DNA from: a phage
Reading direction: 5' to 3' (one strand)
DNA length: 64,000 nucleotides
Assembly (NCBI GenBank): GCA_024673055.1
Contig: GCA_024673055.1_4537.1
Part shown: piece by piece, positions 5,771 to 34,166 of the stretch
Layout of the letters: each line of letters opens with the position of its first letter
Numbering within the stretch: the first letter of the stretch is position 1
Position numbers and translations under genes: made by a program
The notes under the pieces: generated by a model
Databases searched by the model: none
Told to the model about the DNA's origin: nothing
The model's input: the letters and a program-made list of their open reading frames with translations, nothing else

Positions 5771-5779
5771 GGAGTTATA

Positions 5780-8163: not shown

Positions 8164-8853
8164 ATGCCTGTAGAATATAAGTCTGAACGATTAGATATCA
8201 AACCACTTCAGCTTTCAGAAACCAAAGATTATCTTGTGGAGTTCCACAATGGTGATGTTGTTACTGTAATAGAGGCTGACGATGAGTTAGAGAAGTATGG
8301 TTTCCAAGGTTATAAAGATTATAAAAGGACGGGTAAATTTTCTTATATCGTAGTGTCTATAGATAAAGATAGTTTACATACTCCTAGTATCCTTTTTAAT
8401 TTCTACAAAGAGGATGGAGTATTTAAAAATCCAGATATAATTCTTATTGACGAGTCTATTGGCGACATATGGATCGTAGATAAAGGTAAAAAGAAAGAAG
8501 TTAAAGGTTGGGGAAGTTATTGGTTAGCCTATCAGATGCTAATGGGAGATAAAACAGATAGTATCCGACCTTATCAAGATTTTGATATTAAGTTCGGAGA
8601 TATTACTTGTTTTAATCTTCTTTCAGCTTGTAAAACTCAAGCAGAACTTTTCCAAACAGTTAAAGATACTTACTACTCGTGGTTCCCAGATGGTGTTAAT
8701 TTTACTTCTTGGGATGGAGAAGAAGTCCATATGACAACAGATGAATGGATAGAAACAATTTTCCAGTTGGTATACATGAAACGCTGGGATAATGACGATA
8801 CAACATTTGAGAGTATGCTTCAGTCATACATCTCACAACAGGAGGCAGAGTGA
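8164..8853 (+). CDS. hypothetical protein; 5' end uncertain (open frame continues upstream to 7723 without ATG/GTG/TTG)
   Basis: Track ORF; ATG 8164 lacks SD; same frame stays open for 147 codons upstream. Confidence 0.45.
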   Translation: MPVEYKSERLDIKPLQLSETKDYLVEFHNGDVVTVIEADDELEKYGFQGYKDYKRTGKFSYIVVSIDKDSLHTPSILFNFYKEDGVFKNPDIILIDESIGDIWIVDKGKKKEVKGWGSYWLAYQMLMGDKTDSIRPYQDFDIKFGDITCFNLLSACKTQAELFQTVKDTYYSWFPDGVNFTSWDGEEVHMTTDEWIETIFQLVYMKRWDNDDTTFESMLQSYISQQEAE

Positions 8854-19973: not shown

Positions 19974-20233
19974 TGGAATTTGTAATTTTTGGTAAACCTA
20001 ACTGTCAATTTTGCGAAATGTCAAAACAACTATTAACCATGCGCAATAAACAGTTTGAATATTTAAGTCTTGATCAAGACTATGATTTAGAATCAATGAC
20101 TAAAACAGTTGTTGATCTTACCGGAGTTCCTCCACGCACATTTCCACAAATTCTATCTGAAGTGAACGGGGAGGTAACATACGTAGGCGGTTTTACCGAA
20201 CTGCGTGATCTCATGGCTCAAATTGCGGAGTAA
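19973..20233 (+). CDS. nrdC: glutaredoxin-like protein (T4 NrdC-type)
   Basis: 86 aa; CQFC redox motif near N-terminus; size and layout as T4 NrdC. Confidence 0.7.
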   Translation: MEFVIFGKPNCQFCEMSKQLLTMRNKQFEYLSLDQDYDLESMTKTVVDLTGVPPRTFPQILSEVNGEVTYVGGFTELRDLMAQIAE

Positions 20234-20238
20234 CAATT

Positions 20239-20388
20239 ATGAAAAGTAAACAGAAACGTAAGATCTTTTCTCGTGCTTTGGCAAATGAGCTGAAGTCCAA
20301 CATAAAGAAAACGAAACCAAAACGTGAGACTTCTCCAGAACATCTGTTGTTTAACGAGTTGGATCACGGAGTAGGAGACGATGAATAG
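20239..20388 (+). CDS. small basic hypothetical protein (49 aa)
   Basis: ATG 20239 after GGAG; fills gap before lysozyme. Confidence 0.3.
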   Translation: MKSKQKRKIFSRALANELKSNIKKTKPKRETSPEHLLFNELDHGVGDDE

Positions 20389-20395
20389 GAAGTAA

Positions 20396-20896
20396 ATGGC
20401 TAAAGTAGTAGATGAGTTTGATATGCTACGAGTCGATGAAGGACTGAAGCTTACTGTTTACCAAGATCATCTTGGTTATTGGACAGTTGGCATAGGACAC
20501 CTTCTGACTAAAATAAAAGATAAAGCAAAGGCTATTCAAATCTTAGATAATCTTCTTGGTCGTAAGACTAATGGAGTTATCACAGAAAAAGAAGCCCGTC
20601 AAATCTTTGCTGACGATGTTGCAAAAGTGAAGAGAGACATAAAAAACAGTACTATCTTATCACCAATCTATGATAAGGTTAGTGATACTCGTAAATTGGG
20701 AATAATCAACATGGTTTTCCAGTTGGGGTTAAAAGGTGCTGAAGGGTTTCAAAATAGCTTGACTTTAATCAGCAATGCATATTATACTCAAGCAGGTAAA
20801 AACATGCGTAAAAGCCGATGGTATAGCCAGACGCCAAACCGTGCTGAACGAGTAATTAAAGTTCTGACTTCTGGAACTTTAGATGCTTACAACTAA
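20396..20896 (+). CDS. e: T4-type lysozyme (endolysin)
   Basis: MLRVDEGLKLTVYQD...GYWTVGIGHLLTK...NMVFQLG...KSRWYSQTPNRAERVI closely parallels T4 lysozyme including the catalytic Glu/Asp/Thr region. Confidence 0.9.
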   Translation: MAKVVDEFDMLRVDEGLKLTVYQDHLGYWTVGIGHLLTKIKDKAKAIQILDNLLGRKTNGVITEKEARQIFADDVAKVKRDIKNSTILSPIYDKVSDTRKLGIINMVFQLGLKGAEGFQNSLTLISNAYYTQAGKNMRKSRWYSQTPNRAERVIKVLTSGTLDAYN

Positions 20897-20898
20897 TA

Positions 20899-20920
20899 AA
20901 GGGGCTTCGGCCCCTTCTAA
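20899..20920 (+). terminator. stem-loop (UUCG tetraloop), weak U-tract
   Basis: GGGGC-TTCG-GCCCC followed by TTCTAAAA. Confidence 0.45.
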
Positions 20921-20933
20921 AAGGAGTGCTACT

Positions 20934-21692
20934 ATGGGAAATAAAACCGCAGCTAAAACACAACGGCAGAAACTGGCTAATTCAGCAAAGATTGAAAGCC
21001 GTTATGCAGCAAAAGCGGTAGGTAATGACGATTACCGTTTAGATGAATTTATGCCTGAAGGGGACCAAAATAAGATTGTTCAAAGCATGATTTGGAATGA
21101 TCTGACTGTTGTAAATGCTCCGGCAGGGACTGGTAAAACCTCTGTTGCTTTATGGAAAGCTTTGCAGATGCTTCGTTCAGGAGACTTCCGTAAACTACTT
21201 TTTATCAAGAACCCTACTGAAGTCGGAGATGATCAGATTGGTTTCTTGTCGGGGGATAAAACAGATAAACTAGCAGCACACTATGAATCTACAAAACGTA
21301 TTTTCCAGCAATTCATGACAGCCAACAAATTGGAAAACGATATTGGATCAGGTAAGATCGAATTGAATATTCCTAACTATTTGTTAGGGGCTACCCTGGA
21401 TAATACAATCGTCATTATTGACGAAGCACAACTTATGTCAACAGAAACACTTAAACTTCTTATTGAACGTGCAGGTATTAATACGCATGTTATTGTATTA
21501 GGCGATGTTCGCCAGACATATGCAATTAAAAAACGTAGCAATGGTCTGCATCAAATTTTGGAACTTTTATATCCAGAAAATGAAGAAGGTGTTCGTGAGC
21601 CAATTGTAGATTTTATTGGATACGTTGAACTGACAACGGACGATAATAAACGTGGACGTTTGTCTAAACTGATTACTGAAGTGTTTATTTAA
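20934..21692 (+). CDS. phoH: PhoH-like ATPase
   Basis: Walker A APAGTGKTS, Walker B IIDEAQ; start ATG 20934 after AAGGAG (track start 20883 overlaps lysozyme and terminator). Confidence 0.75.
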   Translation: MGNKTAAKTQRQKLANSAKIESRYAAKAVGNDDYRLDEFMPEGDQNKIVQSMIWNDLTVVNAPAGTGKTSVALWKALQMLRSGDFRKLLFIKNPTEVGDDQIGFLSGDKTDKLAAHYESTKRIFQQFMTANKLENDIGSGKIELNIPNYLLGATLDNTIVIIDEAQLMSTETLKLLIERAGINTHVIVLGDVRQTYAIKKRSNGLHQILELLYPENEEGVREPIVDFIGYVELTTDDNKRGRLSKLITEVFI

Positions 21693-21727
21693 TAACATGG
21701 CAGGGAAGCCATTTATAAGGAGGATTG

Positions 21728-22228
21728 ATGGGTGTAGCAACAATAGCTATCGGAAGAAGCGGTATAGATGAGTGCTATCAAACGGGACTCGTAAAACCTA
21801 ACGAATTTCGTCAAATTTGTGTAAACCATATTGAAAAAGAGATTGCTCTTACTTTAGAGAATATGACCCTCCGAGATAAACTGGAAATGTTTAAATGTTG
21901 GTGTCTAGGAGAAGATTGGCTTTTAAACCATTTTCAAGAACTTTCTGATAGTAAAGAAAGCTTGTTTGATTGTATAATAGGAATAGCTGGCTCCGATCCT
22001 AGCCTTCTGCACATAACAGAAGAAGAGGCGAAGTTACTGTTCTTAAGTAATTTGTTTAATAAGAAAGCACTGCTTGTTCGTGATTGCAGTGATCTTCTTA
22101 ATAACCCGCTCGCAACGTCTGATCAAATTTTTGTTGACAAAGAGACACTACGTGCGATAGAATACATCTGCAAATATGTGAATGGCGGGAAAGCGGTTCT
22201 TAAAACATTAACAGAGGAGGAAGAATAG
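21728..22228 (+). CDS. hypothetical protein
   Basis: AAGGAGGA SD then ATG 21728. Confidence 0.5.
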   Translation: MGVATIAIGRSGIDECYQTGLVKPNEFRQICVNHIEKEIALTLENMTLRDKLEMFKCWCLGEDWLLNHFQELSDSKESLFDCIIGIAGSDPSLLHITEEEAKLLFLSNLFNKKALLVRDCSDLLNNPLATSDQIFVDKETLRAIEYICKYVNGGKAVLKTLTEEEE

Positions 22229-22920
22229 TGACGACAATTATTGCAACCAAAAATAAGATTTTGAGTGACGGTAAGGTAACTTTTGGTGGACGTGTAGATT
22301 CTATTAATTTCAAAAAGGTCCGAAAAATTGGAGATTACCTTGTAGGTGGTGCTGGTCGTCTGACCTCCGTGCTTTCTTTCTTTCAATGGTTTGAACAAAA
22401 TCTACAGTGCGAAGCAGCACGTGATGCTGTCCCTGGTTTGATGATTCACTCTGATCCAGATAAAGAAGATGAAGAGTTTATTGCACTTGTTGTTCATCCA
22501 GACGGACGTATTTTCCTGCACGAAGGTAACAACCCAACACGTGCATATCCGATTGATGAAGAATATTATGCAGTAGGGAGTGGGTCAGATTTTGCTTTAG
22601 CTGCTCTTGATGCAGGGGCAACACCAGAACAGGCTATGGAAGTAGCTAAAAAGCGAGATGCTTTTTCTGGTGGTGAAACATTTATTGAAGAACAAGACGA
22701 GATTATTGAATTAACAGATGATGATTTAGAAAACTTCTCCAAAGAAGAATTGATCAATCTTTTGAAATTCGGTAATCCCTACGGTGAAGAAGAACCTCGT
22801 AACGTGGCAGGTAACGAGGCGGATACTGAAGAAAAATCTGTTGCAGAAAACAACTTGACTTCTAAATCTGAAAATATTAATCTCGTAAATGTGGCGGATT
22901 TCGAAGGAACCGCTATTTAA
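22228..22920 (+). CDS. HslV/proteasome-beta-like Ntn peptidase with acidic C-terminal extension
   Basis: N-terminal M-TTIIATK (Thr1 nucleophile after Met removal), GGAGRL, YYAVGSGSDFALAALDAG matches HslV GSGG/active-site region. Confidence 0.55.
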   Translation: MTTIIATKNKILSDGKVTFGGRVDSINFKKVRKIGDYLVGGAGRLTSVLSFFQWFEQNLQCEAARDAVPGLMIHSDPDKEDEEFIALVVHPDGRIFLHEGNNPTRAYPIDEEYYAVGSGSDFALAALDAGATPEQAMEVAKKRDAFSGGETFIEEQDEIIELTDDDLENFSKEELINLLKFGNPYGEEEPRNVAGNEADTEEKSVAENNLTSKSENINLVNVADFEGTAI

Positions 22921-22925
22921 CAAAC

Positions 22926-22945
22926 TGCCCCTTCGGGGGCATTTC
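22926..22945 (+). terminator. intrinsic terminator
   Basis: GCCCC-TTCG-GGGGC followed by ATTTCTT. Confidence 0.5.
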
Positions 22946-22965
22946 TTAAACATAGGAGATTAATA

Positions 22966-23400
22966 ATGTTACAAGTTCCTGCTAAGTTTGTTGAAGGCGC
23001 TATCCACTCTTACCGTCAAACATGTAAGAGGGCAAGAAACTGTTTAGATGGTCTGGTGGCAAAAACCTATACTGTTGAAAAGAAGAAACGTTGGTTTGGC
23101 AAAGATGTTTATGAAGTTAATATTTTTGGTGAACATAAACTAAACCATGACACTCCTGAAAACATGTTAGAAATATTTCTAAGAGATGACAAAATATCTC
23201 CTATGGATTACCAACTTTTAAAATTTTATGATTCTTCTTTGGCTATTGATAAGTTTGTTGAAGATATTCTGTCTAGAAAAACAGATAAAAACACTTATCC
23301 TCTAGAAGCTGATCAAATAGGATTATTAAACGAGATTTCATCCTTTAAAGAGTTGGATAATATTACAAAAGAGGAGATTTTAGATGGCATTAGATTATGA
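22966..23400 (+). CDS. hypothetical protein
   Basis: 144-aa ORF, AGGAGA SD. Confidence 0.5.
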   Translation: MLQVPAKFVEGAIHSYRQTCKRARNCLDGLVAKTYTVEKKKRWFGKDVYEVNIFGEHKLNHDTPENMLEIFLRDDKISPMDYQLLKFYDSSLAIDKFVEDILSRKTDKNTYPLEADQIGLLNEISSFKELDNITKEEILDGIRL

Positions 23401-23893
23401 TCGCCCAACGAGCGATTATTATCCGACACCGCAAAAAGCAATCAATAGTTTGTTTAGTGTTATAGATTTCAAAAATCTAAAGGAAGAAGGTTGGGTTTTT
23501 GCAGAACCTTGCAGAGGTGAAGCTGAAGCGATTTATCGCCATTTTCCTGAAGGTTCAGAATATTGCGAACTTGAAGAAGGTAAAGATTATTTTAGTCATG
23601 AATGGGAAAATCGTCCCGACATTATAATCACAAATCCTCCATTTAAGTTAGCAATGGAGTTCTTGGAAAAGAGCTTAAAAGAGGCGGATGTTTGTATTTA
23701 TCTTCTTCGGTTGGGTTTCTTGGAGTCAAAGAAACGACGAGAGTTCCATCAAAAGAATCCACCAACAAACCTTATAGTCCTTTCAGAACGGCCTTCGTTT
23801 GTTGCAGGTGGAACAGATAAGACAGCATACGCTTGGTATGTATACGACCCAAAGAATCGTTTGGGCCTCTCTCAACCATTTTATTTTGTTTAA
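23384..23893 (+). CDS. small amino-methyltransferase-like protein (phage Dam-like, NPPF motif)
   Basis: IIITNPPF (motif IV of N6A/N4C MTases) and FAEPCRGEAEA (SAM-binding-like); 169 aa. Confidence 0.5.
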   Translation: MALDYDRPTSDYYPTPQKAINSLFSVIDFKNLKEEGWVFAEPCRGEAEAIYRHFPEGSEYCELEEGKDYFSHEWENRPDIIITNPPFKLAMEFLEKSLKEADVCIYLLRLGFLESKKRREFHQKNPPTNLIVLSERPSFVAGGTDKTAYAWYVYDPKNRLGLSQPFYFV

Positions 23894-23905
23894 GGAGTGT
23901 GAACT

Positions 23906-24142
23906 ATGGGTAAACTAATTATGACAGTGGCTATTGATTTTGATGAAGTAGATGAAAGCCTCAACCTTTCACTTTCTACTGACGTAGATGGCGAAATGGA
24001 TAATATTGAAGCAGCTACTGCTCTTTTCTTCAAAAAAGCCATTGAAGTTTATGCCGAACATGCTGCAAATCAGGCAGTAGATTACGGTGGTATCGTGCGA
24101 GCTTTAGTTCACTCTACCGAGGGCAATGACTGGGAAGATTAA
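23906..24142 (+). CDS. hypothetical protein
   Basis: 78-aa ORF. Confidence 0.4.
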   Translation: MGKLIMTVAIDFDEVDESLNLSLSTDVDGEMDNIEAATALFFKKAIEVYAEHAANQAVDYGGIVRALVHSTEGNDWED

Positions 24143-24345
24143 TGGCTTACAATTATTACTGCATTTATGCACATGAAAAGAAAAAAGGTGACACTGGGAC
24201 TAACGTTTATGCAGAGTCCGAATCTCATGCAAAAGAGATTGGTGCTATCCTTTTATCACGCTGGACTGGAAATAATTACAGTGCAGAAGATATGTTTGCA
24301 GAAGTGGATTCTAGTATCCAAGAAGACAACATAACAACTACGTGA
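24142..24345 (+). CDS. hypothetical protein
   Basis: 67-aa ORF coupled to upstream stop. Confidence 0.4.
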   Translation: MAYNYYCIYAHEKKKGDTGTNVYAESESHAKEIGAILLSRWTGNNYSAEDMFAEVDSSIQEDNITTT

Positions 24346-24390
24346 TATACTTATACTCCCTTTTCGGAGGGAGTATTTTAAGGAGGGATT

Positions 24391-24585
24391 ATGCAGAGCG
24401 GAGAAGAACTTTTAGAGAAACAATTCTCAACGCGTCAACAAGCTTTAAGTTATATGGTTTTTCTAAGCAATCTTGATGTGAATGAGATACTTTTACGGCG
24501 CGAAGGTAATTTCTGGAGCGTTAAATATCATGCAACAAGGTCTGTAATCTACCTGGAAGAGGCGGAATTCTCTTTGGTAGAATGA
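24391..24585 (+). CDS. hypothetical protein
   Basis: AAGGAGGGA SD; preceded by stem-loop CTCCC-TTTTCG-GAGGGAG. Confidence 0.4.
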   Translation: MQSGEELLEKQFSTRQQALSYMVFLSNLDVNEILLRREGNFWSVKYHATRSVIYLEEAEFSLVE

Positions 24586-24599
24586 TCCGAGGAGTAGTT

Positions 24600-25172
24600 A
24601 TGCGTTCAACTTTCACTGGCAAAATAAATGCTGGTTTGATTTTTACAGCAGTAAGCATTCTTAGCAAAAAGTTTAAAGTTGTTAACTTACCTGTGTGTGT
24701 CGATTTCGATCATGTTTTTGATCCTTCGAACCCCACTCGTTGCATAGTAAGGAGCAATGTTGAAAACCCAACAGAAAATCTTTTTTATGTAACAAAACCA
24801 TCTCAAAGCATACTTAACCAGGTTGAGGCGAAATTGATACCTAACGGTAAATATTACTCCTTTTTACCTTGTAAGTCGGTTGAAGTAGAGAATAGCAGTA
24901 CTTTCGCTAACAACTTGTCTGTATTCGTTTTCTTTGTTTCACAGGAAGACGAAACAGATGAAATGGTAGCAACAGTGAGATCACTTTATGACTCTTTAGG
25001 GGTTGTTTATAGTCAACAAGTGTGCGAAAATAATAAAGCCTGTGTAGATTTCATTATCAACGGTATTTGTGTTTGTAGAGTAGAATCTTTTTGGCTGCAC
25101 GATACATATGTGACTGTAGCAGAGGTTATATCTGAACCAAGATTTAGTCATGCGGTTTCGTTAATAATTTGA
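24600..25172 (+). CDS. hypothetical protein
   Basis: GAGGAG SD then ATG 24600 (track start 24582 lacks SD). Confidence 0.5.
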   Translation: MRSTFTGKINAGLIFTAVSILSKKFKVVNLPVCVDFDHVFDPSNPTRCIVRSNVENPTENLFYVTKPSQSILNQVEAKLIPNGKYYSFLPCKSVEVENSSTFANNLSVFVFFVSQEDETDEMVATVRSLYDSLGVVYSQQVCENNKACVDFIINGICVCRVESFWLHDTYVTVAEVISEPRFSHAVSLII

Positions 25173-25182
25173 GGAGGAAGGA

Positions 25183-25512
25183 ATGGAAATTACTACAGAA
25201 CAAGCCCTTATCGACGAGGGTCGTAAAATCTTAGAAAAGTATTTAGGGGAGATTCATAAAACCCCTGGCTATTTGGGTTGGAGAATTGTTGAAGCTGTAG
25301 ATTTCCTTCCTCGTAACAGTAAAAACGTCGAAATGCGATCTCTTTTCTTATTAGTAAAGGTGGATGGGGATACACCTTTTAAAGATGCCGCAGAACATAT
25401 TGAAAAAGTTGAAGAGAAAGCTTATGCAGAATTTGCCGATCTTGTTTTAGAACAAGAGATTGAAGGAAAGGTGAATATTTTTATTTTCTTAGATTTTGAG
25501 GAGGATAAGTGA
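25183..25512 (+). CDS. hypothetical protein
   Basis: 109-aa ORF, GAGGAGGAAGG SD. Confidence 0.5.
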   Translation: MEITTEQALIDEGRKILEKYLGEIHKTPGYLGWRIVEAVDFLPRNSKNVEMRSLFLLVKVDGDTPFKDAAEHIEKVEEKAYAEFADLVLEQEIEGKVNIFIFLDFEEDK

Positions 25513-26252
25513 TCATACACAGAGAAATTACTGTTGAAAGCGATCAAGATCTTTTTATAATTGGAGATCTACACGGTTGTTATAATTTGTATGAAAAAGG
25601 AAAGGCAAAGTTAGGTATCCGAGATACAGATGTGGTTGTATCTCTAGGAGATCTTACTGACCGTGGAAAGCAAAACTTTCGTTGTGTTTTAGAATTTACT
25701 CGTAAACACAATCGCTACGCTATTCGTGGAAATCATGAAGACATGATGATTAAAGGTATGCTGGAAGGAGATCGTAGCTACTACGAGTGTTGGTATCAAA
25801 ATGGAGGATATACGGTCTTTGAAGAATGTGGTGAAGAAGGAGCTACAGCCTTAGCAATGATGACAGAAGATTTACCTGTTGTTCTCATTGTTAACTACAG
25901 AGGCATGAAACTTGCGTTTATTCATGGTGGGTATCCATCTTCTTTGGAATATCTCCCTGTAACAGATATTCCAGAATACATTTCGAAGATGACAAAAACA
26001 CAGGAAAACCGTTTTGCTGAAGCACTTATGTGGGACAGAGATATGGTAGACTGTGCTAAAGAGGGAATGAAACTTCCTGTTGTGATGGGTGTGGATTATG
26101 TGTTTCATGGACACTCTTATGTAAAAACACCTATTATCAATGCGAATCGTGTTTATATGGATACTGGATCTGTGTTCAATAATAACTTAACATTTGCTTA
26201 TTTCGATATGGACGGTGGTCTTCAATTTTATTCAACTCTTGAGGAGGATTAA
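25509..26252 (+). CDS. Ser/Thr protein phosphatase (lambda PPase-like metallophosphatase)
   Basis: GDLHG, GDLTDRG, RGNHE motifs in canonical order; GTG start after GAGGAGGA. Confidence 0.75.
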   Translation: MIIHREITVESDQDLFIIGDLHGCYNLYEKGKAKLGIRDTDVVVSLGDLTDRGKQNFRCVLEFTRKHNRYAIRGNHEDMMIKGMLEGDRSYYECWYQNGGYTVFEECGEEGATALAMMTEDLPVVLIVNYRGMKLAFIHGGYPSSLEYLPVTDIPEYISKMTKTQENRFAEALMWDRDMVDCAKEGMKLPVVMGVDYVFHGHSYVKTPIINANRVYMDTGSVFNNNLTFAYFDMDGGLQFYSTLEED

Positions 26253-26560
26253 TGTATAAGATTACAATTATTCAAAGTGTAGGTAATATCCGTAAAGAAG
26301 TTATCTTAGAAACAGAAGATGTTAATCTTGTTCGTGAGATTGTTCTTAAGGAAGATAACCTGCAAGCTGTAGAATCAGATGCACCGAATCTTATGGTGGA
26401 TCAAGAATATTCTGAACTTCGTCGTATTTTTGAAGAGATTCAGAAGAAAGAAACACAACCGACCATAAAACCTTTTGGTCCTTATGATCCGAGCAATCCT
26501 AGCAGTCCTTGGATCATGAGAAATACGGAACCGTATACACCTTTTGAAATTACTTGTTGA
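26252..26560 (+). CDS. hypothetical protein
   Basis: 102-aa ORF. Confidence 0.45.
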   Translation: MYKITIIQSVGNIRKEVILETEDVNLVREIVLKEDNLQAVESDAPNLMVDQEYSELRRIFEEIQKKETQPTIKPFGPYDPSNPSSPWIMRNTEPYTPFEITC

Positions 26561-26567
26561 GGTGATT

Positions 26568-27149
26568 ATGGCAGAACTGTTCTATACGGGAGTTGGAAGT
26601 AGAGACATATCCGAAGAAGAGTGGGCTTTGATGGTAGGCATAGGGAAATGGCTTTCAAACCTTGGGTTTAAATTAAGGTCTGGGAAGGCAGAGGGTAGTG
26701 ATTCTGCTTTTGAAACAGGTGTCCAAGAGTCTGAAAATCCTACTAACAAGGAGATTTATGTTCCTTGGGAAAATTTCAAAGGTAATCAGATTCCAGGGGA
26801 TGTTATTGTTCTTGCAAAACCAGATACAATGAACTATGCTATCTCTGTGCAATGGATCAAAGATGTTCACCCAGCCTATGAAAAGCTTAAGCAGGGTGCT
26901 AGAAAATTGCACCAACGTAATGTGCATCAAGTGTTAGGTAGAGATTTGGAAAATCCTGCTCCATCATGTTTCTTGTTGGCTTGTGCTAATACTGATAAAC
27001 ATGGAGATGCAAAAGGTGGAACAGCTACGGCTTGGAAGATAGCTAAAGCCAATAATGTTCCTTGTTTAAACATTCGTGGGAAAACAAAACAAGAGATTTA
27101 CGATTTTCTACGACCTTTGGTAATGAGGGCAATAACAAGTGATTCCTAA
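26568..27149 (+). CDS. SLOG/DprA-like Rossmann-fold protein
   Basis: GVGSRD and RSGKAEGSDSAFETG resemble DprA/SLOG SGxAxGxD nucleotide-binding motif; weak. Confidence 0.35.
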   Translation: MAELFYTGVGSRDISEEEWALMVGIGKWLSNLGFKLRSGKAEGSDSAFETGVQESENPTNKEIYVPWENFKGNQIPGDVIVLAKPDTMNYAISVQWIKDVHPAYEKLKQGARKLHQRNVHQVLGRDLENPAPSCFLLACANTDKHGDAKGGTATAWKIAKANNVPCLNIRGKTKQEIYDFLRPLVMRAITSDS

Positions 27150-27651
27150 ACGTAAACGTGGTGAACAAAGAACAAACTTGGCAGAAATCTTAGATTACAA
27201 CATGGTTAATGATGTGACAAAAGAAATTCTGCCTGTTGTAGAAGATATTCTTCAAAGAGGGTTACGATTCTGCTCGGATCGGGTGCATTTCATGTGGACA
27301 CATAAAAGTGACTCCGCTTTGAATTTCTATCCTTTGGATTATACTCTGAACAATACAGAGATGAAAGATATCAACAAATACTTAATGGGATATAAAGATA
27401 TAACCGAAACTGTTCTTGGAGAATTGGCAGAAATCTTGGCTAACGATATTCTTAGAAATATTAATAAGGCTCTTGACAGAAGCCCAGCAGGAGTAGTAGT
27501 ATCTTTTGCTGTGCCAGATATGGTTAAATATGAGTCTACAATACCTAATAAAGCTTATGCCTTTCTTCGGAGAGACGTTCGTGGAAATGTGTTGGAGATG
27601 GAGTCAAACTACAAGATTGAGGAGGTTTTATGGCAGAGTTCGGATCAGTAA
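27139..27651 (+). CDS. hypothetical protein
   Basis: 170-aa ORF; start uncertain (GTG 27139 or ATG 27199). Confidence 0.4.
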   Translation: MIPKRKRGEQRTNLAEILDYNMVNDVTKEILPVVEDILQRGLRFCSDRVHFMWTHKSDSALNFYPLDYTLNNTEMKDINKYLMGYKDITETVLGELAEILANDILRNINKALDRSPAGVVVSFAVPDMVKYESTIPNKAYAFLRRDVRGNVLEMESNYKIEEVLWQSSDQ

Positions 27652-27920
27652 CAAGTTTTGAAAGTAACTTCGTTACCGCTTGGGAAGCTTGGGATGAAAT
27701 GGGTGTTGGGGAACTTTATTTTTACAATGTAACACTACGTCCAGAGTATGCTTACCTGGTACCAGAAGGAACAGTTCAAATTGGCATGTATCTGTCTTCT
27801 CAAGATGGTGTTGTTCAATTTGAGTTTTATTCAAACACAACGGACAACGAATTTACATATCGTGCATTTCATGTCAACATGTCTTTAGGAGAGGAGAAAT
27901 TTTATGACGACCAAGTTTAA
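27630..27920 (+). CDS. hypothetical protein
   Basis: 96-aa ORF, GAGGAGG SD. Confidence 0.45.
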   Translation: MAEFGSVTSFESNFVTAWEAWDEMGVGELYFYNVTLRPEYAYLVPEGTVQIGMYLSSQDGVVQFEFYSNTTDNEFTYRAFHVNMSLGEEKFYDDQV

Positions 27921-28101
27921 AACAGTAGAAGAAGCCGTAAAAGCAGCTTATGAGGCTTTAGCGGAAGCAGAGCAGTTAGCAGATGAGACTGGTAAAGGTT
28001 TCCGTTTCTCCCCTGAATATGGGATGGGTGGCTATTATGATCCAGAAGATGAAAATGAGAATACTGGAACAAATTGGCATCCATCTTCTTTAAGTTGTTA
28101 A
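27904..28101 (+). CDS. hypothetical protein
   Basis: 65-aa ORF, GGAGAGGAG SD. Confidence 0.4.
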   Translation: MTTKFKTVEEAVKAAYEALAEAEQLADETGKGFRFSPEYGMGGYYDPEDENENTGTNWHPSSLSC

Positions 28102-28112
28102 TAGGAGGTAAA

Positions 28113-28388
28113 GTGGGAATCGAAGATATCAAAGGTTATAAGGCGCATACTGACGATAAGATTGGCAAGGTTAACGCTATTAAAGATGCAGAAGAGCGTT
28201 TAGGTTTAATCTTCAAAGCTTTAGAGGAAGAGTATTGTGAAGCATATCATGGGTCTTTTGACGGCACAGAAAAAGAATTAGATCTTGCATACGAACGTAT
28301 TGATCAAATCCGTTGTGCTATTAAACATTTAAAAGAAGCTAGTATGTGGGCTTGTCGTTCAGTTTTCCAACCAGAGGAGAAATACTAA
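28113..28388 (+). CDS. hypothetical protein
   Basis: AGGAGG then GTG 28113. Confidence 0.4.
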   Translation: MGIEDIKGYKAHTDDKIGKVNAIKDAEERLGLIFKALEEEYCEAYHGSFDGTEKELDLAYERIDQIRCAIKHLKEASMWACRSVFQPEEKY

Positions 28389-28606
28389 TGAGTGATCGTA
28401 ATGTTGAAGAATTAACTGAAAAAGCCCAAGCTATTATGGCTTTAGTGGACGAACTTACAAAAGAAGCTGAAGATGCTGGTTTTGGTCTTAGTTTAGAAAA
28501 TGACGCAATCTGTTTTGAAGATTGGCAATCCTCTTCTTGTTATGGTGAAGGTGATGATGGTTTCGTCGTTAATTCTCAAGGCGTTTGGCACAGTAGTAGC
28601 TGTTAA
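28388..28606 (+). CDS. hypothetical protein
   Basis: GAGGAGAAATACTA then ATG 28388. Confidence 0.4.
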   Translation: MSDRNVEELTEKAQAIMALVDELTKEAEDAGFGLSLENDAICFEDWQSSSCYGEGDDGFVVNSQGVWHSSSC

Positions 28607-28615
28607 GGAGAGATT

Positions 28616-28888
28616 GTGGAGTCTGAAGGCGAACTGCTGATAAAAAAGAAAGTTAAAGAGATGGAACAAGCACAAAGAAAGTTTCGTAAGGAGATTGAAG
28701 AACTTTGTGAACAGTTTCAGGAACAAGCTTGGATAGGTGACTACGGTAACGGAGAAACTTATTACCCTACAGGAACGCCAGCCGCAGATCACTATATTGA
28801 TTTCATTTGTGAAGATTATGGTGTAGAGTTGGATGAAAATGGTTTAACCACAAGAGGTGTTTGGATCTCTTCTTCCTTAATGTGTTAG
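28616..28888 (+). CDS. hypothetical protein
   Basis: GGAGAGATT then GTG 28616. Confidence 0.4.
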   Translation: MESEGELLIKKKVKEMEQAQRKFRKEIEELCEQFQEQAWIGDYGNGETYYPTGTPAADHYIDFICEDYGVELDENGLTTRGVWISSSLMC

Positions 28889-28897
28889 TAAATAATA

Positions 28898-28919
28898 ACC
28901 CGCTTCGGCGGGTTTTTTA
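28898..28919 (+). terminator. intrinsic terminator (UUCG tetraloop)
   Basis: ACCCGC-TTCG-GCGGGT followed by TTTTTT. Confidence 0.65.
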
Positions 28920-28922
28920 TTG

Positions 28923-28951
28923 ACAGGAATCTGGAAGCTTGATAAACTTAA
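28923..28951 (+). promoter_or_regulatory. sigma70-like promoter (TTGACA-17-TAAACT)
   Basis: -35 TTGACA 28923-28928 immediately after terminator; -10 TAAACT. Confidence 0.45.
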
Positions 28952-28978
28952 CCTATCAACCAATAGAGGAGAAATATT

Positions 28979-29920
28979 ATGGTGTTAATTGGTAGCCGTG
29001 CATTGCAAATTCATGCTATGGACATGGGAAAAGACTTGTATCGCCCTTGTGTAGATTTAGATTACCTGTGTACAGAACAAGAGTGGGAAGAATTATTAAA
29101 AATGTTCTCTCAAGAGGAGTTTGTTGAACTTGTAGAACGTAAAGGAAACAAAGGCCATGTCAAAATGATAGCTGGTGCACATTTGGAATACGATATTGCT
29201 TCTCAAGGAGATAGCACAGAAGCTTTGATTAGTTATTGTGAAGATTCTGATGATGTTCGTCGAACTTACGCTGGACATGTTGTTGCTCCTTTAGATGTGC
29301 TCTACCTTCTTAAAATGAGTCATCGTTTTAAAAAGGATAGTCCTCACTTCTTTAAAACTATGAAAGATATTCATTTCATGCGGTCACTGGGCGCAAAGAT
29401 CCCAGAAAATCTTAAGAGTATTTATGAGTTGCGTGAGAAAGAAACATACACTTACTCTCATCCGAACTTAAACGTAAAAAGTAAAGACTTCTTTAAAGGT
29501 GATGAGGTTCCGTATGTTTATGATCATGATTCTATCCATGAAGCAATCTCGGTAATGGATGCTCCAGCATATAAATCTTATATGAAAGATGGAAGTGAAG
29601 TTATGACCAGCAAAGAAAAGTTTTTTGCTCAACCAAAACATGTGCGCCTGTTAGGTGTTTATGAAGAAGCGTGTGTTTTGGCTTTGGAACGTTCACAAAT
29701 CCCTTTCGGTGAAGAGATCGGAGGTCCAACCCCTAAGCAAAGTTTTATAATGGCTTTATCTAAAGTCTGCACATCCATCACTAGTGGTTGGTTTAGGGAA
29801 TATGCTTGGGAAAACTTTTATGTTGTTACTAAGCTATATGAAAACATGGGCGAAAACGATTATGTTGAACGTTTTAAAGCTAATCAACATGTAGTTAAGC
29901 CTTTTGAAGGAGGTTATTAA
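28979..29920 (+). CDS. hypothetical protein (possible minimal nucleotidyltransferase fold)
   Basis: 313-aa ORF; N-terminal LIGSRAL...DLD loosely resembles pol-beta-type NTase GS...DxD; weak. Confidence 0.45.
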   Translation: MVLIGSRALQIHAMDMGKDLYRPCVDLDYLCTEQEWEELLKMFSQEEFVELVERKGNKGHVKMIAGAHLEYDIASQGDSTEALISYCEDSDDVRRTYAGHVVAPLDVLYLLKMSHRFKKDSPHFFKTMKDIHFMRSLGAKIPENLKSIYELREKETYTYSHPNLNVKSKDFFKGDEVPYVYDHDSIHEAISVMDAPAYKSYMKDGSEVMTSKEKFFAQPKHVRLLGVYEEACVLALERSQIPFGEEIGGPTPKQSFIMALSKVCTSITSGWFREYAWENFYVVTKLYENMGENDYVERFKANQHVVKPFEGGY

Positions 29921-29921
29921 T

Positions 29922-30317
29922 ATGTGTGGATATCTTTCAGAAAGTTATTTCAAAGTGACCCATGAGGATTTAGAAAAAGCACGATTGAAACTGACAGCTA
30001 TTATTGAATACTCTAATACTGTTGATCACAGATTAAAGACTACTAAAGTATCTGTTCCTTGTTGGTTAGGTTTACGGCATAAAACAATGTCTCAGCATGA
30101 CCATGTTGTTCGAGAGATGCATGGTTGGTGTTGGTTTCACGATGTGGCTCTGCATTTTGGTTATATTACAGAAGAAGAGCATAGATTCTGTGAACTAACA
30201 TATCGTATTCCAACCCTTCACGATTTAGATTTGTGGAAGAAAGCAAACGAGATTTTTCTTACAGAAAGTGATTGGCGTAAAGTTATGGCTTGTCTTGAAT
30301 GGAGGGGTAATGAGTAA
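29922..30317 (+). CDS. hypothetical protein
   Basis: AAGGAGG then ATG 29922. Confidence 0.45.
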   Translation: MCGYLSESYFKVTHEDLEKARLKLTAIIEYSNTVDHRLKTTKVSVPCWLGLRHKTMSQHDHVVREMHGWCWFHDVALHFGYITEEEHRFCELTYRIPTLHDLDLWKKANEIFLTESDWRKVMACLEWRGNE

Positions 30318-30993
30318 AACAGTTTTGTCTATGTTTGACGGATCTGGGATCATGGTGTTACGTTATGCCGAAGCAGGTCACAAGTGTTTTTGTGTAAACG
30401 CTGATGAAGGGGATCACGGTAAATACGAGGTTAGGATGGAGCACCCAAACATAACCTATGTGAATGCCTGGATAGATTCTACATTCAACCCTGAAGATCA
30501 TGGGATACCTAAACCCGATATTATTTTTGGATTTCCACCCTGCACTATGTTAGCAGGTAGTGGTAGCAAACACGAACGTAGCACAGAGGAATTAGATGAA
30601 GCTTTAGCTAATATTCGTGTAGTGGAAGCTTTGGGTAACAAATATAATGTTCCTTGGATGATTGAGAACCCAGTAGGTAAACTTTCAACCTTATGGCGTA
30701 AACCCGATTTTTACTTTGATCCTTATGAGTATGGTGGGTATTTGTTTGAAGAGGAAGGAAGCTTTCATCCTAAAATGCCTACCCGTGATGGGTATACAAA
30801 GAAAACTTGTATTTGGCACGGCAATGGTTTTGTTCAACCAGTGAAGAAACCAGTAGATCATATAGGCTGCTTCTGGGGTTGGAAAAGCTTAGGTGGAGCT
30901 AGTGCAAAAACAAAACAACTTAGATCACTAACCGCACGTGGTTTTGCTCGTGCAGTGTTTTTGTCTAACAATCTTCTAGATAAGGAGAAATAA
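30310..30993 (+). CDS. cytosine-C5 methyltransferase-like protein (minimal, PCT variant)
   Basis: Start ATG 30310 after GGAGG; FDGSG (motif I-like), FGFPPCTMLAG (motif IV PC(Q)-like), IENPVGKL (motif VI ENV-like); no obvious target-recognition domain. Confidence 0.45.
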   Translation: MSKTVLSMFDGSGIMVLRYAEAGHKCFCVNADEGDHGKYEVRMEHPNITYVNAWIDSTFNPEDHGIPKPDIIFGFPPCTMLAGSGSKHERSTEELDEALANIRVVEALGNKYNVPWMIENPVGKLSTLWRKPDFYFDPYEYGGYLFEEEGSFHPKMPTRDGYTKKTCIWHGNGFVQPVKKPVDHIGCFWGWKSLGGASAKTKQLRSLTARGFARAVFLSNNLLDKEK

Positions 30994-31646
30994 TGTCAAA
31001 TTCAAAACCAGTGGTTGCTTATCAAGTAGATCGTAATGATGGTGAAGGAAGTGTTGTTATTTTCAGTACACACGGTCTTGAGGCTCGTCGAAAAGGTGCA
31101 TATCGTTTAGAATGTGAGTTTGAAGACTGCACAAGCCACCGTGTCAAACAATTCGATCAATATGCTGATAAAGGCTTCGTCCCTATCAAAGCGTTACTGG
31201 AAGATGGTTGGTGGGTATATTCTGCTTTTGATTACTCAAAACTGGAGGAGTCAGCTTCGTGCGCCTCCGAGATCGAATATGATGATTACTATGACACTCT
31301 ATACCTTCCAGAATGGCTTGTCTTTTCTCCTGATGAGAGAAGTGTCTGGAAAACGTGGGAAGAAATGGAGAGACATGCGTATAGCATCAATGAAGCTTTA
31401 GATCGTAAAGCTTGGTTTATTGAGGCAGTAAAGGCGGCATACCCCCAATTCTCATTCTGTGATTTCACTGGTGGCCCAGGATACATTACACATACAGCCT
31501 CTTTTGAGTTTCCTGGTTCACGTTATAAGGGTAATGTTTATTGGGACTGGGATGAAAATAAACAACCTTCGGCTCAAGACTTCCGTTGCTATGTTTGTCA
31601 AGGTGATCAAGAAGCCCTTGACAAATACCTTGAAAGTCTGGTATAG
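30993..31646 (+). CDS. hypothetical protein
   Basis: 217-aa ORF, AAGGAGAAATA SD. Confidence 0.5.
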   Translation: MSNSKPVVAYQVDRNDGEGSVVIFSTHGLEARRKGAYRLECEFEDCTSHRVKQFDQYADKGFVPIKALLEDGWWVYSAFDYSKLEESASCASEIEYDDYYDTLYLPEWLVFSPDERSVWKTWEEMERHAYSINEALDRKAWFIEAVKAAYPQFSFCDFTGGPGYITHTASFEFPGSRYKGNVYWDWDENKQPSAQDFRCYVCQGDQEALDKYLESLV

Positions 31647-31654
31647 TGCCGATA

Positions 31655-31690
31655 TCTGAACAAAGCCTCCTGTTTCAGGGGGCTTTTCTT
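31655..31690 (+). terminator. probable intrinsic terminator
   Basis: GCCTCC-tgtttca-GGGGGC stem-loop followed by TTTTCTTTT. Confidence 0.45.
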
Positions 31691-31704
31691 TTATAGGAGG
31701 GAAT

Positions 31705-32190
31705 ATGTTTCAAGTAAATGTCAATGTGCATAATAGTTACTCTGATTGTGAAACGTGTGGCTATAATTCATCTAATGTTATTCGTATTAGTGGCGATTTA
31801 GGAGAAGCTTCTTTTGGAGAAGAAGCAAGTTGCTTTAGTGGTATGGATGCAGAATGGAATGATATTGCACATTGGTTAGTGAGCAAACTAAAAGAAAAAG
31901 AGAAACCATTTCCTACTCTGCTTGATCGTTCTCTTGTGGAAGATGCAGGTAAAGCATATGCAGACTATGCGTATGCAGACGGGAAATATTTGGAAGATGA
32001 TAAGGCTAACCATTTGCTTTATGTTTACTATGAAGCTGAATCTGCCTACGATAATTATTACAGCATGTCTAACATCCTACGTCTGTTTGCAGAGTTTGAT
32101 ATTTATTTCGAAGTAGAATTTTCAGAAGATGATACTTACGAGTACAATTCTTATGATCCATTTGAGGAGGAAGAATGCCAAGACGAGTGA
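31705..32190 (+). CDS. hypothetical acidic protein
   Basis: 161-aa ORF, AGGAGGGAATATG. Confidence 0.5.
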   Translation: MFQVNVNVHNSYSDCETCGYNSSNVIRISGDLGEASFGEEASCFSGMDAEWNDIAHWLVSKLKEKEKPFPTLLDRSLVEDAGKAYADYAYADGKYLEDDKANHLLYVYYEAESAYDNYYSMSNILRLFAEFDIYFEVEFSEDDTYEYNSYDPFEEEECQDE

Positions 32191-32990
32191 TTTTTGTAAG
32201 TGGTGCAGGTTTAAGTGCAGACAGTGGGATTCGAACATTTAGAACAGACACAGATAGTGGTCGTGCTTTATGGGAAGAATATGATTTAGAAGAGGTCTGC
32301 GATATTGGAGCTTTCCAAGCAGGTTATCGTGTTAGAACATCTCCAGATCTTCCAGTGGTCGGTGGTGTAGACGAGAACGGTATGGATTTGTATGCCAAAA
32401 CACACGAATTTTATAACAAAAGACGTGTTGAGCTTAAAGATGTACAACCTAATGCTGCACATATTCAAATAGCAAAGTGGTTTAAGGAATATCCTAACCA
32501 AATAGTAAACTTGACAACAAACGTTGATGATCTACTAGAGCGAGCAGGTGTAGACAGAGATTCTGTTATTCACGTACACGGATATCTTCCTGAAGTAGTT
32601 TACCGTATGCATCCTGGAGATTACAAAACACTGGTAGATATTGGTTACAATAGTATAAACATAGATGATTATAACTGGGTGAAGCCTAATGTTGTATTTT
32701 TTGGTGAGGCTGCACCTTTGTATGCAGATATGGCTCACTTGTTCGATACTTTGACCATGCAAGATTTGGTTGTAGTAGTAGGATGTTCAAACCAAGTTAT
32801 CAATTTTAATTGGGAATTATTTCCTGCACTTAGTATGGGTACAAAAATGGTTGTAGTTAACCCTGGAGTTAATTACGAAGAAACACTTCTCTATGAAGAT
32901 CGTGGAGTTTTTGTTTACCGAGAAAAAGCTGCAACAGCCTTCAGCAATGAAGGTTTCATTAAAATGGTCGAAGACCACTTAAACAAATAA
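32175..32990 (+). CDS. SIR2-family (sirtuin-like) NAD-binding protein lacking zinc module
   Basis: FVSGAGLSADSGIRTFR matches sirtuin GAGxSxxSGIPxFR; NVDDLLERAG and HVHG motifs present; no CxxC zinc ribbon. Confidence 0.65.
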   Translation: MPRRVIFVSGAGLSADSGIRTFRTDTDSGRALWEEYDLEEVCDIGAFQAGYRVRTSPDLPVVGGVDENGMDLYAKTHEFYNKRRVELKDVQPNAAHIQIAKWFKEYPNQIVNLTTNVDDLLERAGVDRDSVIHVHGYLPEVVYRMHPGDYKTLVDIGYNSINIDDYNWVKPNVVFFGEAAPLYADMAHLFDTLTMQDLVVVVGCSNQVINFNWELFPALSMGTKMVVVNPGVNYEETLLYEDRGVFVYREKAATAFSNEGFIKMVEDHLNK

Positions 32991-32998
32991 ACCACTCA

Positions 32999-33024
32999 AG
33001 GGGGCTTCGGCCCCTTTCTTATTA
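32999..33024 (+). terminator. intrinsic terminator (UUCG tetraloop)
   Basis: GGGGC-TTCG-GCCCC followed by TTTCTTATT. Confidence 0.6.
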
Positions 33025-33034
33025 GGAGAATAAA

Positions 33035-33307
33035 ATGACTGAAGAAATCCGTGATTACTACCTTGCACATTACGTTTACTACTTTGCCAATGCTACACAA
33101 AAAGGGGAAGGTAATCTTTACTTGGCAACAGGACATGGAACAGGCGTTAGGAAATCAAATATTGATAATGCCTTGGCTCAAGTGGCTGCGGGGCTAGAAG
33201 ATAAACTTCAAACACCTGTAGTTGTAGTGATGCAAAATATAAGTTACCTAGCAAGTTGTACTGAAACCGAATTTAACGCGTCTGAGACGCAATCTAACGA
33301 AGAATAA
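33035..33307 (+). CDS. hypothetical protein
   Basis: 90-aa ORF, AGGAGAATAAA SD; last + strand gene before strand switch. Confidence 0.45.
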   Translation: MTEEIRDYYLAHYVYYFANATQKGEGNLYLATGHGTGVRKSNIDNALAQVAAGLEDKLQTPVVVVMQNISYLASCTETEFNASETQSNEE

Positions 33308-33310
33308 AAC

Positions 33311-33337
33311 AAAGGCACCCAAGTGGGTGCCTTTTCT
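33311..33337. terminator. bidirectional terminator at convergence point
   Basis: GGCACCC-AAGT-GGGTGCC hairpin flanked by T-tracts on both strands between converging gene blocks. Confidence 0.6.
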
Positions 33338-33376
33338 ATTTTAGAGCGTCTCTGTTCGATTTAGGTGGGTTCTAGC

Positions 33377-33607
33377 TTACTTGTGTAGTGCTCTCTCGTA
33401 TAACTCAATGATCAATTCATCCTCTACTGTAATACGCGCCATTTGATCCGTCTTAAGTATTGTTGGTTGGTAGTGGTGCATTTCACTATTGATACTACAA
33501 TCCCATTCGTCATAACCTAAATACTCTCCTACATGGACCTTAACCATAAAGGGAAACGGGTTATCTACCAAAAATGCCATACAACCTTCTTCGATTTTAT
33601 TTAACAC
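33377..33607 (-). CDS. hypothetical protein
   Basis: Track ORF; start ambiguous. Confidence 0.35.
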   Translation of the reverse strand: MLNKIEEGCMAFLVDNPFPFMVKVHVGEYLGYDEWDCSINSEMHHYQPTILKTDQMARITVEDELIIELYERALHK

Positions 33608-33698
33608 ACGACCTCCTATTGCTACAGATATGAAAAAACCCGCCGAAGCGGGTTCTATTGCTACGATAGGATCACTATCCTATAGTATTGTTTCTGTG

Positions 33699-33980
33699 TC
33701 AAGCCTTAGCGTAGAAAAACTTCTCATATTCAGATTTTGTTACGATTGTGGGGCAATCTTTTGTTCCATCCTCGATAACAGGGGCTTCTACCATTCTGGT
33801 GTTGAATAAGCAATAAGTTCCACGCATGTAAATACCCAGTTTTGTTTCTACGATGTGCTCTTTACTTACACTTGAAAACTTAATCTCACCATCGGAGTCT
33901 CTTATAGCAATAAGCGCATGTTCAGGCCAATCTTTTCCTTTTGCTCCTAAAGCATTATACAATTCTTGAACGAGTTCCAT
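33699..33980 (-). CDS. hypothetical protein
   Basis: 93-aa track ORF in same-strand array. Confidence 0.45.
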   Translation of the reverse strand: MELVQELYNALGAKGKDWPEHALIAIRDSDGEIKFSSVSKEHIVETKLGIYMRGTYCLFNTRMVEAPVIEDGTKDCPTIVTKSEYEKFFYAKA

Positions 33981-33992
33981 ATGACCTCCTTA

Positions 33993-34166
33993 TTAAATAA
34001 CAAATTTTTCTTCTTCTGGCTTATCGTAATCTGGAGAATAAACATGTGCGGGATTAAAACCTTTAAAATTTCCGCGACCTTTACGTGGACAGTTGAATGT
34101 GCGAGCTTGATGATCCCCAAAAGATTTCCCACAATGCATACATTTAAAATCAGTGCGTTTAGTCAT
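33993..34166 (-). CDS. small zinc-ribbon protein
   Basis: AAGGAGA SD then ATG 34166; CMHCG...CPRKG Cys pairs. Confidence 0.4.
   Translation of the reverse strand: MTKRTDFKCMHCGKSFGDHQARTFNCPRKGRGNFKGFNPAHVYSPDYDKPEEEKFVI

Follow-up and report, generated by a model that had tools for sequence, protein, structure and literature searches.

What does a small, stand-alone SLOG protein that resembles DprA do in the genome of a phage: does it handle DNA, as its database name has it, or does it bind a small nucleotide-derived ligand? We addressed this question for one gene in a 64-kb stretch of phage DNA (the window) by comparing its product with homologues, with known structures, and with the genes found around its relatives. 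Our best reading of these sequence comparisons is that the relatives point to NAD/ADP-ribose-derived molecules rather than to DNA recombination.

The initial annotation had placed a SLOG/DprA-like nucleotide-binding protein at 26568-27149, citing two motifs. Its coordinates proved exact, with an ATG start, a ribosome-binding site, and a product of 193 aa. In the list of ORFs, the gene is given as 26544..27149 (+) and starts with TTG. The true start is the ATG at 26568, in the same frame; it agrees with the RefSeq CDS of the same gene and with the N-termini of the homologues, which in the alignment all lie no more than a few residues from the conserved Y-T-G-V-G-S-R. Both quoted motifs, GVGSRD and SGKAEGSDSAFETG (residues 38-51, nt 26679-26720), are present, and both lie in alignment columns that show no variation among 129 cluster representatives; the finding, with its profile and database matches given below, goes far beyond chance. 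The features of the gene, which is single copy in the window, are as follows.

26559-26565, + strand: Shine-Dalgarno-like GAGGTGA, ~5 nt 5' of the ATG, read from the sequence
26568..27149, + strand: CDS of a stand-alone SLOG (DprA-like) protein, PHROG 768, 193 aa, with its TAA stop at 27147-27149 (ORF list, sequence, PHROG, RefSeq, and model)
26589..26606, + strand: Gly-rich loop after strand 1, GVGSRD, aa 8-13, with G10 and R12 invariant
26676..26720, + strand: end of strand 2 and start of helix 2, RSGKAEGSDSAFETG, aa 37-51, with R37, G39, and D45 invariant
26910..26930, + strand: helix motif HQRNVHQ, aa 115-121, with H115, R117, N118, and Q121 invariant
27015..27029, + strand: GGTAT, aa 150-154, the SLOG G-G-[ST] phosphate-binding loop

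Upstream lies a 102-aa ORF whose stop codon (26558-26560) overlaps the GAGGTGA sequence. The ORF on the downstream side, of 170 aa, begins with GTG at 27139, giving an 11-nt overlap with the SLOG stop. The window protein has a pI of ~7.7, the same as the family median of 7.7, and is thus not strongly basic.

The window comes from a Phapecoctavirus, one of the E. coli myoviruses that resemble phAPEC8 and have genomes of ~150 kb. Over positions 20000-34000 it shares 99.6% identity with phage Mt1B1_P17, in which the identical RefSeq CDS is YP_009987138.1, and a 100% identical protein occurs in ~60 phage records, including phAPEC8, ESCO13, and Mt1B1_P17. The RefSeq product name, "DprA-like DNA recombination-mediator protein", is inherited from PHROG 768, which the window protein matches with an E value of 2e-62 (residues 2-182 of 193 against profile positions 2-180 of 191); by this alignment it is a full-length member, with no difference from the PHROG 768 proteins of large virulent phages. 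As the SLOG/DprA label is already public, the interpretation of the initial annotation rediscovers an existing one. The gene and its fold assignment are thus ordinary, and the family is already known and annotated. The family name itself derives from remote homology alone, and a search of the literature found no experiments on PHROG 768 members.

The window protein was aligned with 50 homologues, and its AlphaFold2 model reached a mean pLDDT of 95.5 and a pTM of 0.91. The model is a three-layer Rossmannoid in which a Gly-rich loop follows strand 1 and a G-G-[ST] loop precedes the last helices, as in the SLOG superfamily. Foldseek against the PDB placed H. pylori DprA (HpDprA) on top, both with and without ssDNA (E 1.5e-5), followed by ShosA, ThsA, Moco carrier protein, S. 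pneumoniae DprA, TM1055, and YpsA, with further matches to YgdH/PpnN, LOG, and the TRPM melastatin domain. ThsA, in which SLOG is fused to SIR2, is an effector of the host and the type I Thoeris sensor of 3'cADPR; its SLOG domain has no detectable sequence similarity to the window protein. The SLOG/DprA-like fold proposed at the outset is therefore borne out by the model, by Foldseek, and by the profile and Pfam matches given below. The outcome named as speaking against it, the lack of a SLOG-fold match, did not occur; the top Foldseek matches all belong to the SLOG superfamily, so the fold call holds, but structure alone picks no branch.

Sequence searches place the protein nearest to the DprA branch. 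The family profile matched the DprA structure 3maj (E 0.018). Against PF02481 (DNA_processg_A), the window protein itself scores 12.7 bits versus a cut-off of 29.6, over residues 9-52 only, and 35 of 51 homologues reach this family at E <= 0.01 (best 2.6e-7), which indicates that the DprA kinship is real though distant. LDcluster4 was matched by three of the 51 homologues, and YpsA and YAcAr (PF06908, PF10686) by neither the protein nor any of the 51. A phmmer search of the PDB with the protein alone gave chance matches to selenophosphate synthetase and nothing else, an NCBIfam search with the protein gave no match, and hhalign of the family profile against the single sequence of E. coli Smf gave 17% probability over 39 columns, too little to be informative. 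This placement differs from that of most viral SLOGs in the survey of Iyer et al. 2022 (PMC9503650), which were assigned to a YpsA-like clade, in that the PHROG 768 family matches DprA and not YpsA or YAcAr.

Conservation was assessed in an alignment of 129 representatives, each sharing 30-48% identity with the window protein. G10, R12, R37, G39, D45, H115, R117, N118, Q121, G124, G151, and T152 are 100% invariant, and S11, S38, A41, G43, P66, W67, H101, P102, S133, G150, T154, A155, and N168 are conserved in at least 93%. The RSGKAEGSDSAFETG segment carries the DprA-type S-G-x-A-x-G-x-D together with R37, which is peculiar to the PHROG 768 family, and R117-N118 corresponds to the "RN" of the DprA RNR motif. 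In the model, the conserved residues lie at the ends of strands 1, 2, and 3, within the helix that precedes strand 4, and in the loop leading to the penultimate helix. The ligand pocket of Rossmann-type folds sits at such strand ends, and this, together with the topology of the modeled fold, suggests that the conserved residues form one pocket for phosphate and ribose. Strict conservation of these positions spans hosts as unlike as Pseudomonas, Vibrio, Bacillus, and roseobacters.

Bacterial DprA/Smf (PF02481) is the RecA loader of natural transformation. Following the current database label, the window protein would be a minimal DprA that binds ssDNA through R12 and R117 and protects single-stranded intermediates of replication or recombination or hands them to host RecA or a phage recombinase, a reading that we consider unlikely. 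We compared the protein by eye with E. coli Smf and by motif-anchored residue counting on PDB DprA alignments. It shares with DprA the Rossmann/SLOG core and all four DprA motifs (G-S-R, S-G-x-A-x-G-x-D, R-N, and G-G-[ST]), which favors a minimal DprA, as do the PF02481 and 3maj matches, the top Foldseek matches to HpDprA, and the DNA ligase, exonuclease, and DNA polymerase genes that lie in the same long + strand block as the SLOG gene. By counting against the numbering of PMC12961424, R12 aligns with HpDprA R52 and ShosA R139, and R117 aligns with HpDprA R143 and ShosA R234. Mutating these two arginines in HpDprA and ShosA abolishes ssDNA binding and antitoxin activity (PMC12961424). Both are invariant among the 129 representatives, and it is this DprA feature, combined with the nearness of DprA in sequence, that keeps the ssDNA-mediator reading alive. 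However, the R-N motif is also phosphate-binding in LOG enzymes (10.1101/2025.06.06.658234), so the arginine evidence does not discriminate a DprA from a nucleotide binder. The third ssDNA-contact residue, HpDprA R170, is replaced by K157 in the window protein and mostly by Asn in the family.

Other parts of DprA have no counterpart in the window protein, which argues against a minimal DprA, as do its PF02481 score below the cut-off and its near-neutral pI. The protein is a single domain in which both the N-terminal SAM domain and the C-terminal winged-helix DML1 domain of DprA are absent. The DprA segment after strand 5 (P-G..G.N.LI..GA; strand 5 is aa 166-168 here) is replaced by a single terminal helix, and neither the by-eye comparison nor the PDB alignments gave a counterpart of the Smf segment PGPIGNPGSEGPHWLIKQGA. 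In S. pneumoniae DprA, the post-strand-5 segment bears dimerization residues and part of the RecA-contact residues. E235 and D243 are reportedly the RecA-contact acids of that protein, as Quevillon-Cheruel and colleagues are said to have described in 2012; the corresponding positions in the window protein are K157 and P165, so these acids are not kept. The window protein further differs from DprA in a ~40-residue strand-plus-helix insertion after strand 3 (aa 68-100) and in the conserved additions R37, H115, and Q121 (100%) and W67 (at least 93%). It is not a canonical DprA. If it nevertheless proves to be a genuine minimal ssDNA binder, it would mark the lower size limit of a functional DprA core.

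The family profile recovered 5985 50%-identity clusters at E <= 1e-3, of which 2025 matched at E <= 1e-30, and nearly all of them are stand-alone proteins of 170-210 aa. By tblastn, the protein is found in 1443 of 50,697 phage records (roughly 3%); the phages that carry it include phAPEC8-like, rV5-like, Pakpunavirus, Otagovirus-like, many T4-like, and phiKZ-like jumbo phages, N4-like roseophages, and one Bacillus phage. Among plasmids, 29 of 72,556 were positive, 12 of them conjugative. No match was found at the DNA level in 5,426 complete E. coli genomes, and a scan of 185,579 species genomes with an 11-sequence alignment and two peptide patterns, which gives a lower bound, detected at least four loci, one beside an integrase and one clearly phage. 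The family is thus almost confined to mobile elements, namely phages and plasmids. Conjugative plasmids enter cells as ssDNA, and the presence of homologues on them would suit a minimal DprA. The T4-like phages with the gene already have UvsX, UvsY, and gp32, which counts against such a role. For jumbo phages, an earlier study suggested that DprA/Smf may serve as an additional protein that binds ssDNA (Iyer et al. 2021, PMC7824862).

The plasmid homologues are 33-40% identical to the window protein and reside on plasmids of Sphingomonadaceae, Variovorax, and Methylibium that are large and often conjugative. An example lies at 7992-8504 of the analyzed locus of Novosphingobium plasmid pLA1 (L093), and 28 other plasmids carry one. 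Their neighbors encode DUF736, an SRAP peptidase, DUF1173, and hypothetical proteins, a type of gene content seen in plasmid establishment regions. On one megaplasmid, recA lies 5.7 kb from the SLOG homologue; plasmid neighborhoods are otherwise uninformative.

Domain fusions were found in longer family members. We searched ten long members against Pfam; those fused to NADAR or DUF4326 belong to the same family (PHROG 768) by their match to the family profile at E <= 1e-50. In P0144 and P0223, an N-terminal NADAR domain is fused to the family SLOG; P0121 (1488 aa) and P0122 (1475 aa) combine several SLOG domains with a C-terminal NADAR; and P0197 has an N-terminal DUF4326. The other long members of the ten carry unknown PHROG domains. 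The copies fused to NADAR or DUF4326 retain R12, R37, D45, H101, R117, N118, Q121, and GGT. That the fusion partners are NADAR and DUF4326, with no DNA-binding modules, argues against a minimal DprA. Viral SLOGs with Macro, NADAR, or DUF4326 fusions have been predicted to sense or degrade ADP-ribose-derived immune signals, and viral SLOG domains have been described as experimentally uncharacterized (Iyer et al. 2022, PMC9503650). The present family resembles those described in that survey in being a stand-alone SLOG of a large caudovirus with NADAR and DUF4326 fusions and Macro neighbors among its members.

P0121 and P0122 each contain a PHROG-768-type SLOG, a YAcAr SLOG, an LDcluster4 SLOG, and NADAR, with ~500 residues between domains that have no Pfam match. 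They resemble polyvalent multi-SLOG proteins.

Gene neighborhoods were examined in 80 viral contigs and in reference phages by clustering the ORFs within 6 kb on each side. The resulting 78 loci were collapsed to 37 lineages at 60% SLOG identity, and recurrent neighbors were confirmed by Pfam and searched again with local HMMs. The recurrent neighbors, to which dCMP deaminase can be added, were the following.

PhoH, often adjacent: 9 of 37 lineages, the commonest neighbor
Macro domain: 6 of 37 lineages, always upstream on the same strand at 0.35-2.8 kb
NAMPT-like: 5 of 37 lineages
PRPP-synthetase-like (PRPPS): 5 of 37 lineages
Metallophosphatase: 5 of 37 lineages
NrdA: 5 of 37 lineages
ThyX: 5 of 37 lineages
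DUF4326: 3 of 37 lineages
NADAR as a separate neighboring gene: 1 of 37 lineages

The PRPPS-like and NAMPT-like pair corresponds to the NARP1 NAD+-reconstitution pathway (Adps and Namat), and the SLOG gene accompanies it in at least three gene orders, PRPPS-NAMPT-x-Macro-SLOG, PRPPS-NAMPT-x-SLOG, and SLOG-PRPPS-NAMPT-x-DUF4326, with an annotated Pakpunavirus example; many of these loci come from related ~90-kb Pseudomonas-type phages, whose common descent makes the linkage to NARP1 and Macro look stronger than it is. Adpp, the NARP1-associated Macro protein, dephosphorylates ADPR-1''P and defeats the aRES defense (preprint 10.64898/2026.01.28.702374). Neither DprA nor SLOG is named among the NARP1-associated genes in that preprint and its supplements.

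Among Pakpunavirus-type and related phages, Pseudomonas phage Moonstruck (L003, 13-4576) has the SLOG gene directly beside the NARP1 genes and the Macro phosphatase Adpp. SLOG genes beside NARP1 or Macro genes are also seen in L049, L057-L059, L067, L068, L076, L016, L018, and L052.

In the window itself, local HMMs for NADAR, Macro, DUF4326, NAMPT, and PRPPS gave no matches across the 64 kb. A tie to the NAD/ADP-ribose network, by fusion or by conserved neighborhood, is therefore found for the family and not at the window locus, and the link to NAD and ADP-ribose comes from the relatives.

Taken together, we tentatively favor, at a little under even chances, a protein that binds or processes an NAD- or ADP-ribose-derived molecule and that is used in counter-defense. 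This reading ranks first because the only fusions found are to ADP-ribose-processing domains, because the NARP1/Macro linkage survives gene rearrangement, because the pocket has invariant polar residues beyond those of DprA (the strip H115/N118/Q121, which with R37 and W67 has no equivalent in DprA), and because the RecA-handling parts of DprA are missing. The near-neutral pI, the restriction to mobile elements, the prediction of Iyer et al. 2022, and the listing of ORF83 (described below) as an inhibitor of Avs3 with predicted AMP binding were also counted in its favor; counted against it were the position of DprA as the nearest branch by sequence and the invariance of the two ssDNA-contact arginines. 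The gene, its fold and motif set, the mobile-element restriction, the fusions, and the neighborhoods are established.

A possible mechanism would have the protein made from an early/middle operon and would involve a conserved pocket, at the C-terminal ends of the Rossmann strands, composed of G-x-G-S-R12, R37-S-G-x-A-x-G-x-D45, P-W67, H101-P, H115-x-R117-N118-x-x-Q121, and G-G-T152. This pocket may bind, and possibly convert, a small phosphorylated nucleotide derived from NAD+ or ADP-ribose, for which a host immune signal or the product of an NADase would be candidates. The protein would then serve as a counter-defense or NAD-economy accessory and not as a RecA loader. We infer the identity of the ligand, the choice between its sequestration and its hydrolysis, and the role in counter-defense from the features of the family described above.

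A broader proposal, which we regard as somewhat unlikely in its full form, is that PHROG 768 constitutes an unrecognized counter-defense class of phages and plasmids, that its pocket captures or cleaves an NAD-derived immune product, and that "recombination mediator" is a misnomer. The target would be a cADPR isomer or another ADPR derivative, and in NARP1 phages the protein would act as an accessory beside Adpp that returns products to ADPR for the rebuilding of NAD+. Taken separately, the name "recombination mediator" that the family now carries is probably misleading, and its members may form part of the NAD/ADP-ribose counter-defense toolkit of phages. With ~6000 50%-identity clusters and a presence in roughly 3% of sequenced phage genomes, the family is widespread. 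Provided that its real role is the one to which the fusions and the NARP1/Macro linkage point, the family would be a widespread addition to the phage toolkit against NAD-based immunity, and thousands of records that bear the recombination label would have to be corrected.

Some of the same neighborhoods allow for a plainer function. PhoH, RNR, ThyX, and dCMP deaminase neighbors fit general nucleotide metabolism equally well, and a housekeeping nucleotide-pool enzyme working beside ribonucleotide reductase and thymidylate synthase, for example an N-glycosidase or a hydrolase whose substrates are (d)NMPs or modified nucleotides and which takes no direct part in immunity, would explain the PhoH, RNR, and ThyX genes. 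Because clustering with nucleotide-metabolism genes is what the early/middle regions of large phages show by default, it is weak evidence for such an enzyme. The sequence of the protein also fits poorly: no LOG or other enzyme family was detected by sequence, and the position of the catalytic Glu in the LOG motif P-G-G-x-G-T-x-x-E, aa 157, is Lys here and Asn, Lys, or Met in the family. We accordingly rejected a LOG-type enzyme mechanism, as the catalytic Glu is missing, and we consider a nucleotide-pool enzyme improbable.

Two other SLOG proteins provide a further comparison. ShosA, the DprA-like antitoxin of the toxin ShosT, needs its SAM domain, the dimer contacts L181/F182, and the RecA contacts K200/R206 (PMC12961424), and in the motif-anchored alignment none of K200, R206, L181, and F182 has a counterpart in the window protein. 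ORF83, annotated as Smf/DprA, is listed in the EVADES preprint as an experimentally found inhibitor of Salmonella Avs3; it was modeled with AMP and predicted to bind it, is without the DprA dimer or RecA residues, and has DUF4326-fused homologues in amoeba viruses (10.1101/2025.06.06.658234). By its published description, ORF83 resembles the window protein: both are small SLOG proteins of phages that stand alone, contain an R-N motif, and have a Thr in the Gly loop. The ORF83 residues R89/N90/T112/D114 compare with R117/N118/T152/T154 here, the different numbering indicating that ORF83 is not the window protein, and it is structurally closest to LOG, whereas Foldseek places DprA first for the window protein. 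A direct protein inhibitor or decoy of host defense that would act by protein-protein contact and not through a small ligand, either a ShosA stand-in that silences ShosT or an ORF83-like Avs3 binder, is most improbable, as the ShosA SAM domain, dimer contacts, and RecA contacts are missing, for which a ShosA mimic was ranked low, and as the conservation of a pocket across diverse hosts is better explained by a small ligand common to all of them than by a host protein that varies.

In the window, the SLOG gene lies in a + strand unit of ~6 kb that is bounded by hairpins and also holds a DNA methyltransferase gene, a metallophosphatase gene, and ~12 small ORFs. The boundaries, from a consensus scan only, are as follows.

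22926..22941, + strand: terminator-like hairpin at the upstream end of the transcription unit
28897..28914, + strand: terminator-like hairpin at the downstream end of the unit
28920-28948, + strand: promoter-like site after the downstream hairpin

The metallophosphatase is calcineurin-like (PF00149) and is encoded at 25509-26252, two genes upstream of the SLOG gene, and a PhoH gene lies 4.9 kb upstream. The immediate neighbors, the 102-aa ORF upstream and the 170-aa ORF downstream, occur only in close relatives and at one distant locus, L062, and have no Pfam match. We rejected these flanking ORFs as conserved partners since they are restricted to near relatives.

Several smaller observations concern the same region. 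L062, from a contig of a viral metagenome, is a distant relative of the operon in the window; it retains the small upstream ORF beside its SLOG gene (4893-5249 and 5623-5982), and it carries DUF4326 three genes upstream, which the window does not. The 102-aa ORF of the window (26252-26560) ends in Cys (PFEITC), and its L062 homologue does likewise (PFTVTC). Downstream of the SLOG gene, 27904-28101, 28388-28606, and 28616-28888 (+) encode consecutive small acidic paralogues of 65, 72, and 90 aa that are 27-37% identical, each with an N-terminal helix and a C-terminal G-V-W-(H/I)-S-S-S-(L)-x-C ending exactly at the stop. A 196-aa ORF at 24582-25172 (+) bears the RefSeq label "histidyl tRNA synthetase", which both the size of the ORF and its occurrence only in close relatives make doubtful. 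A Sir2-family protein (PF02146, E 1.9e-22) is encoded at 32175-32990 (+), in the transcription unit that follows and ~5 kb downstream from the SLOG gene; a phage sirtuin in a region poor in NAD genes may be relevant to NAD-based conflict. Finally, a perfect bidirectional terminator-like hairpin with a 10 bp stem, 6 of them GC, is found on both strands at 33311-33334, at the switch from the + gene block to a - block of small ORFs.
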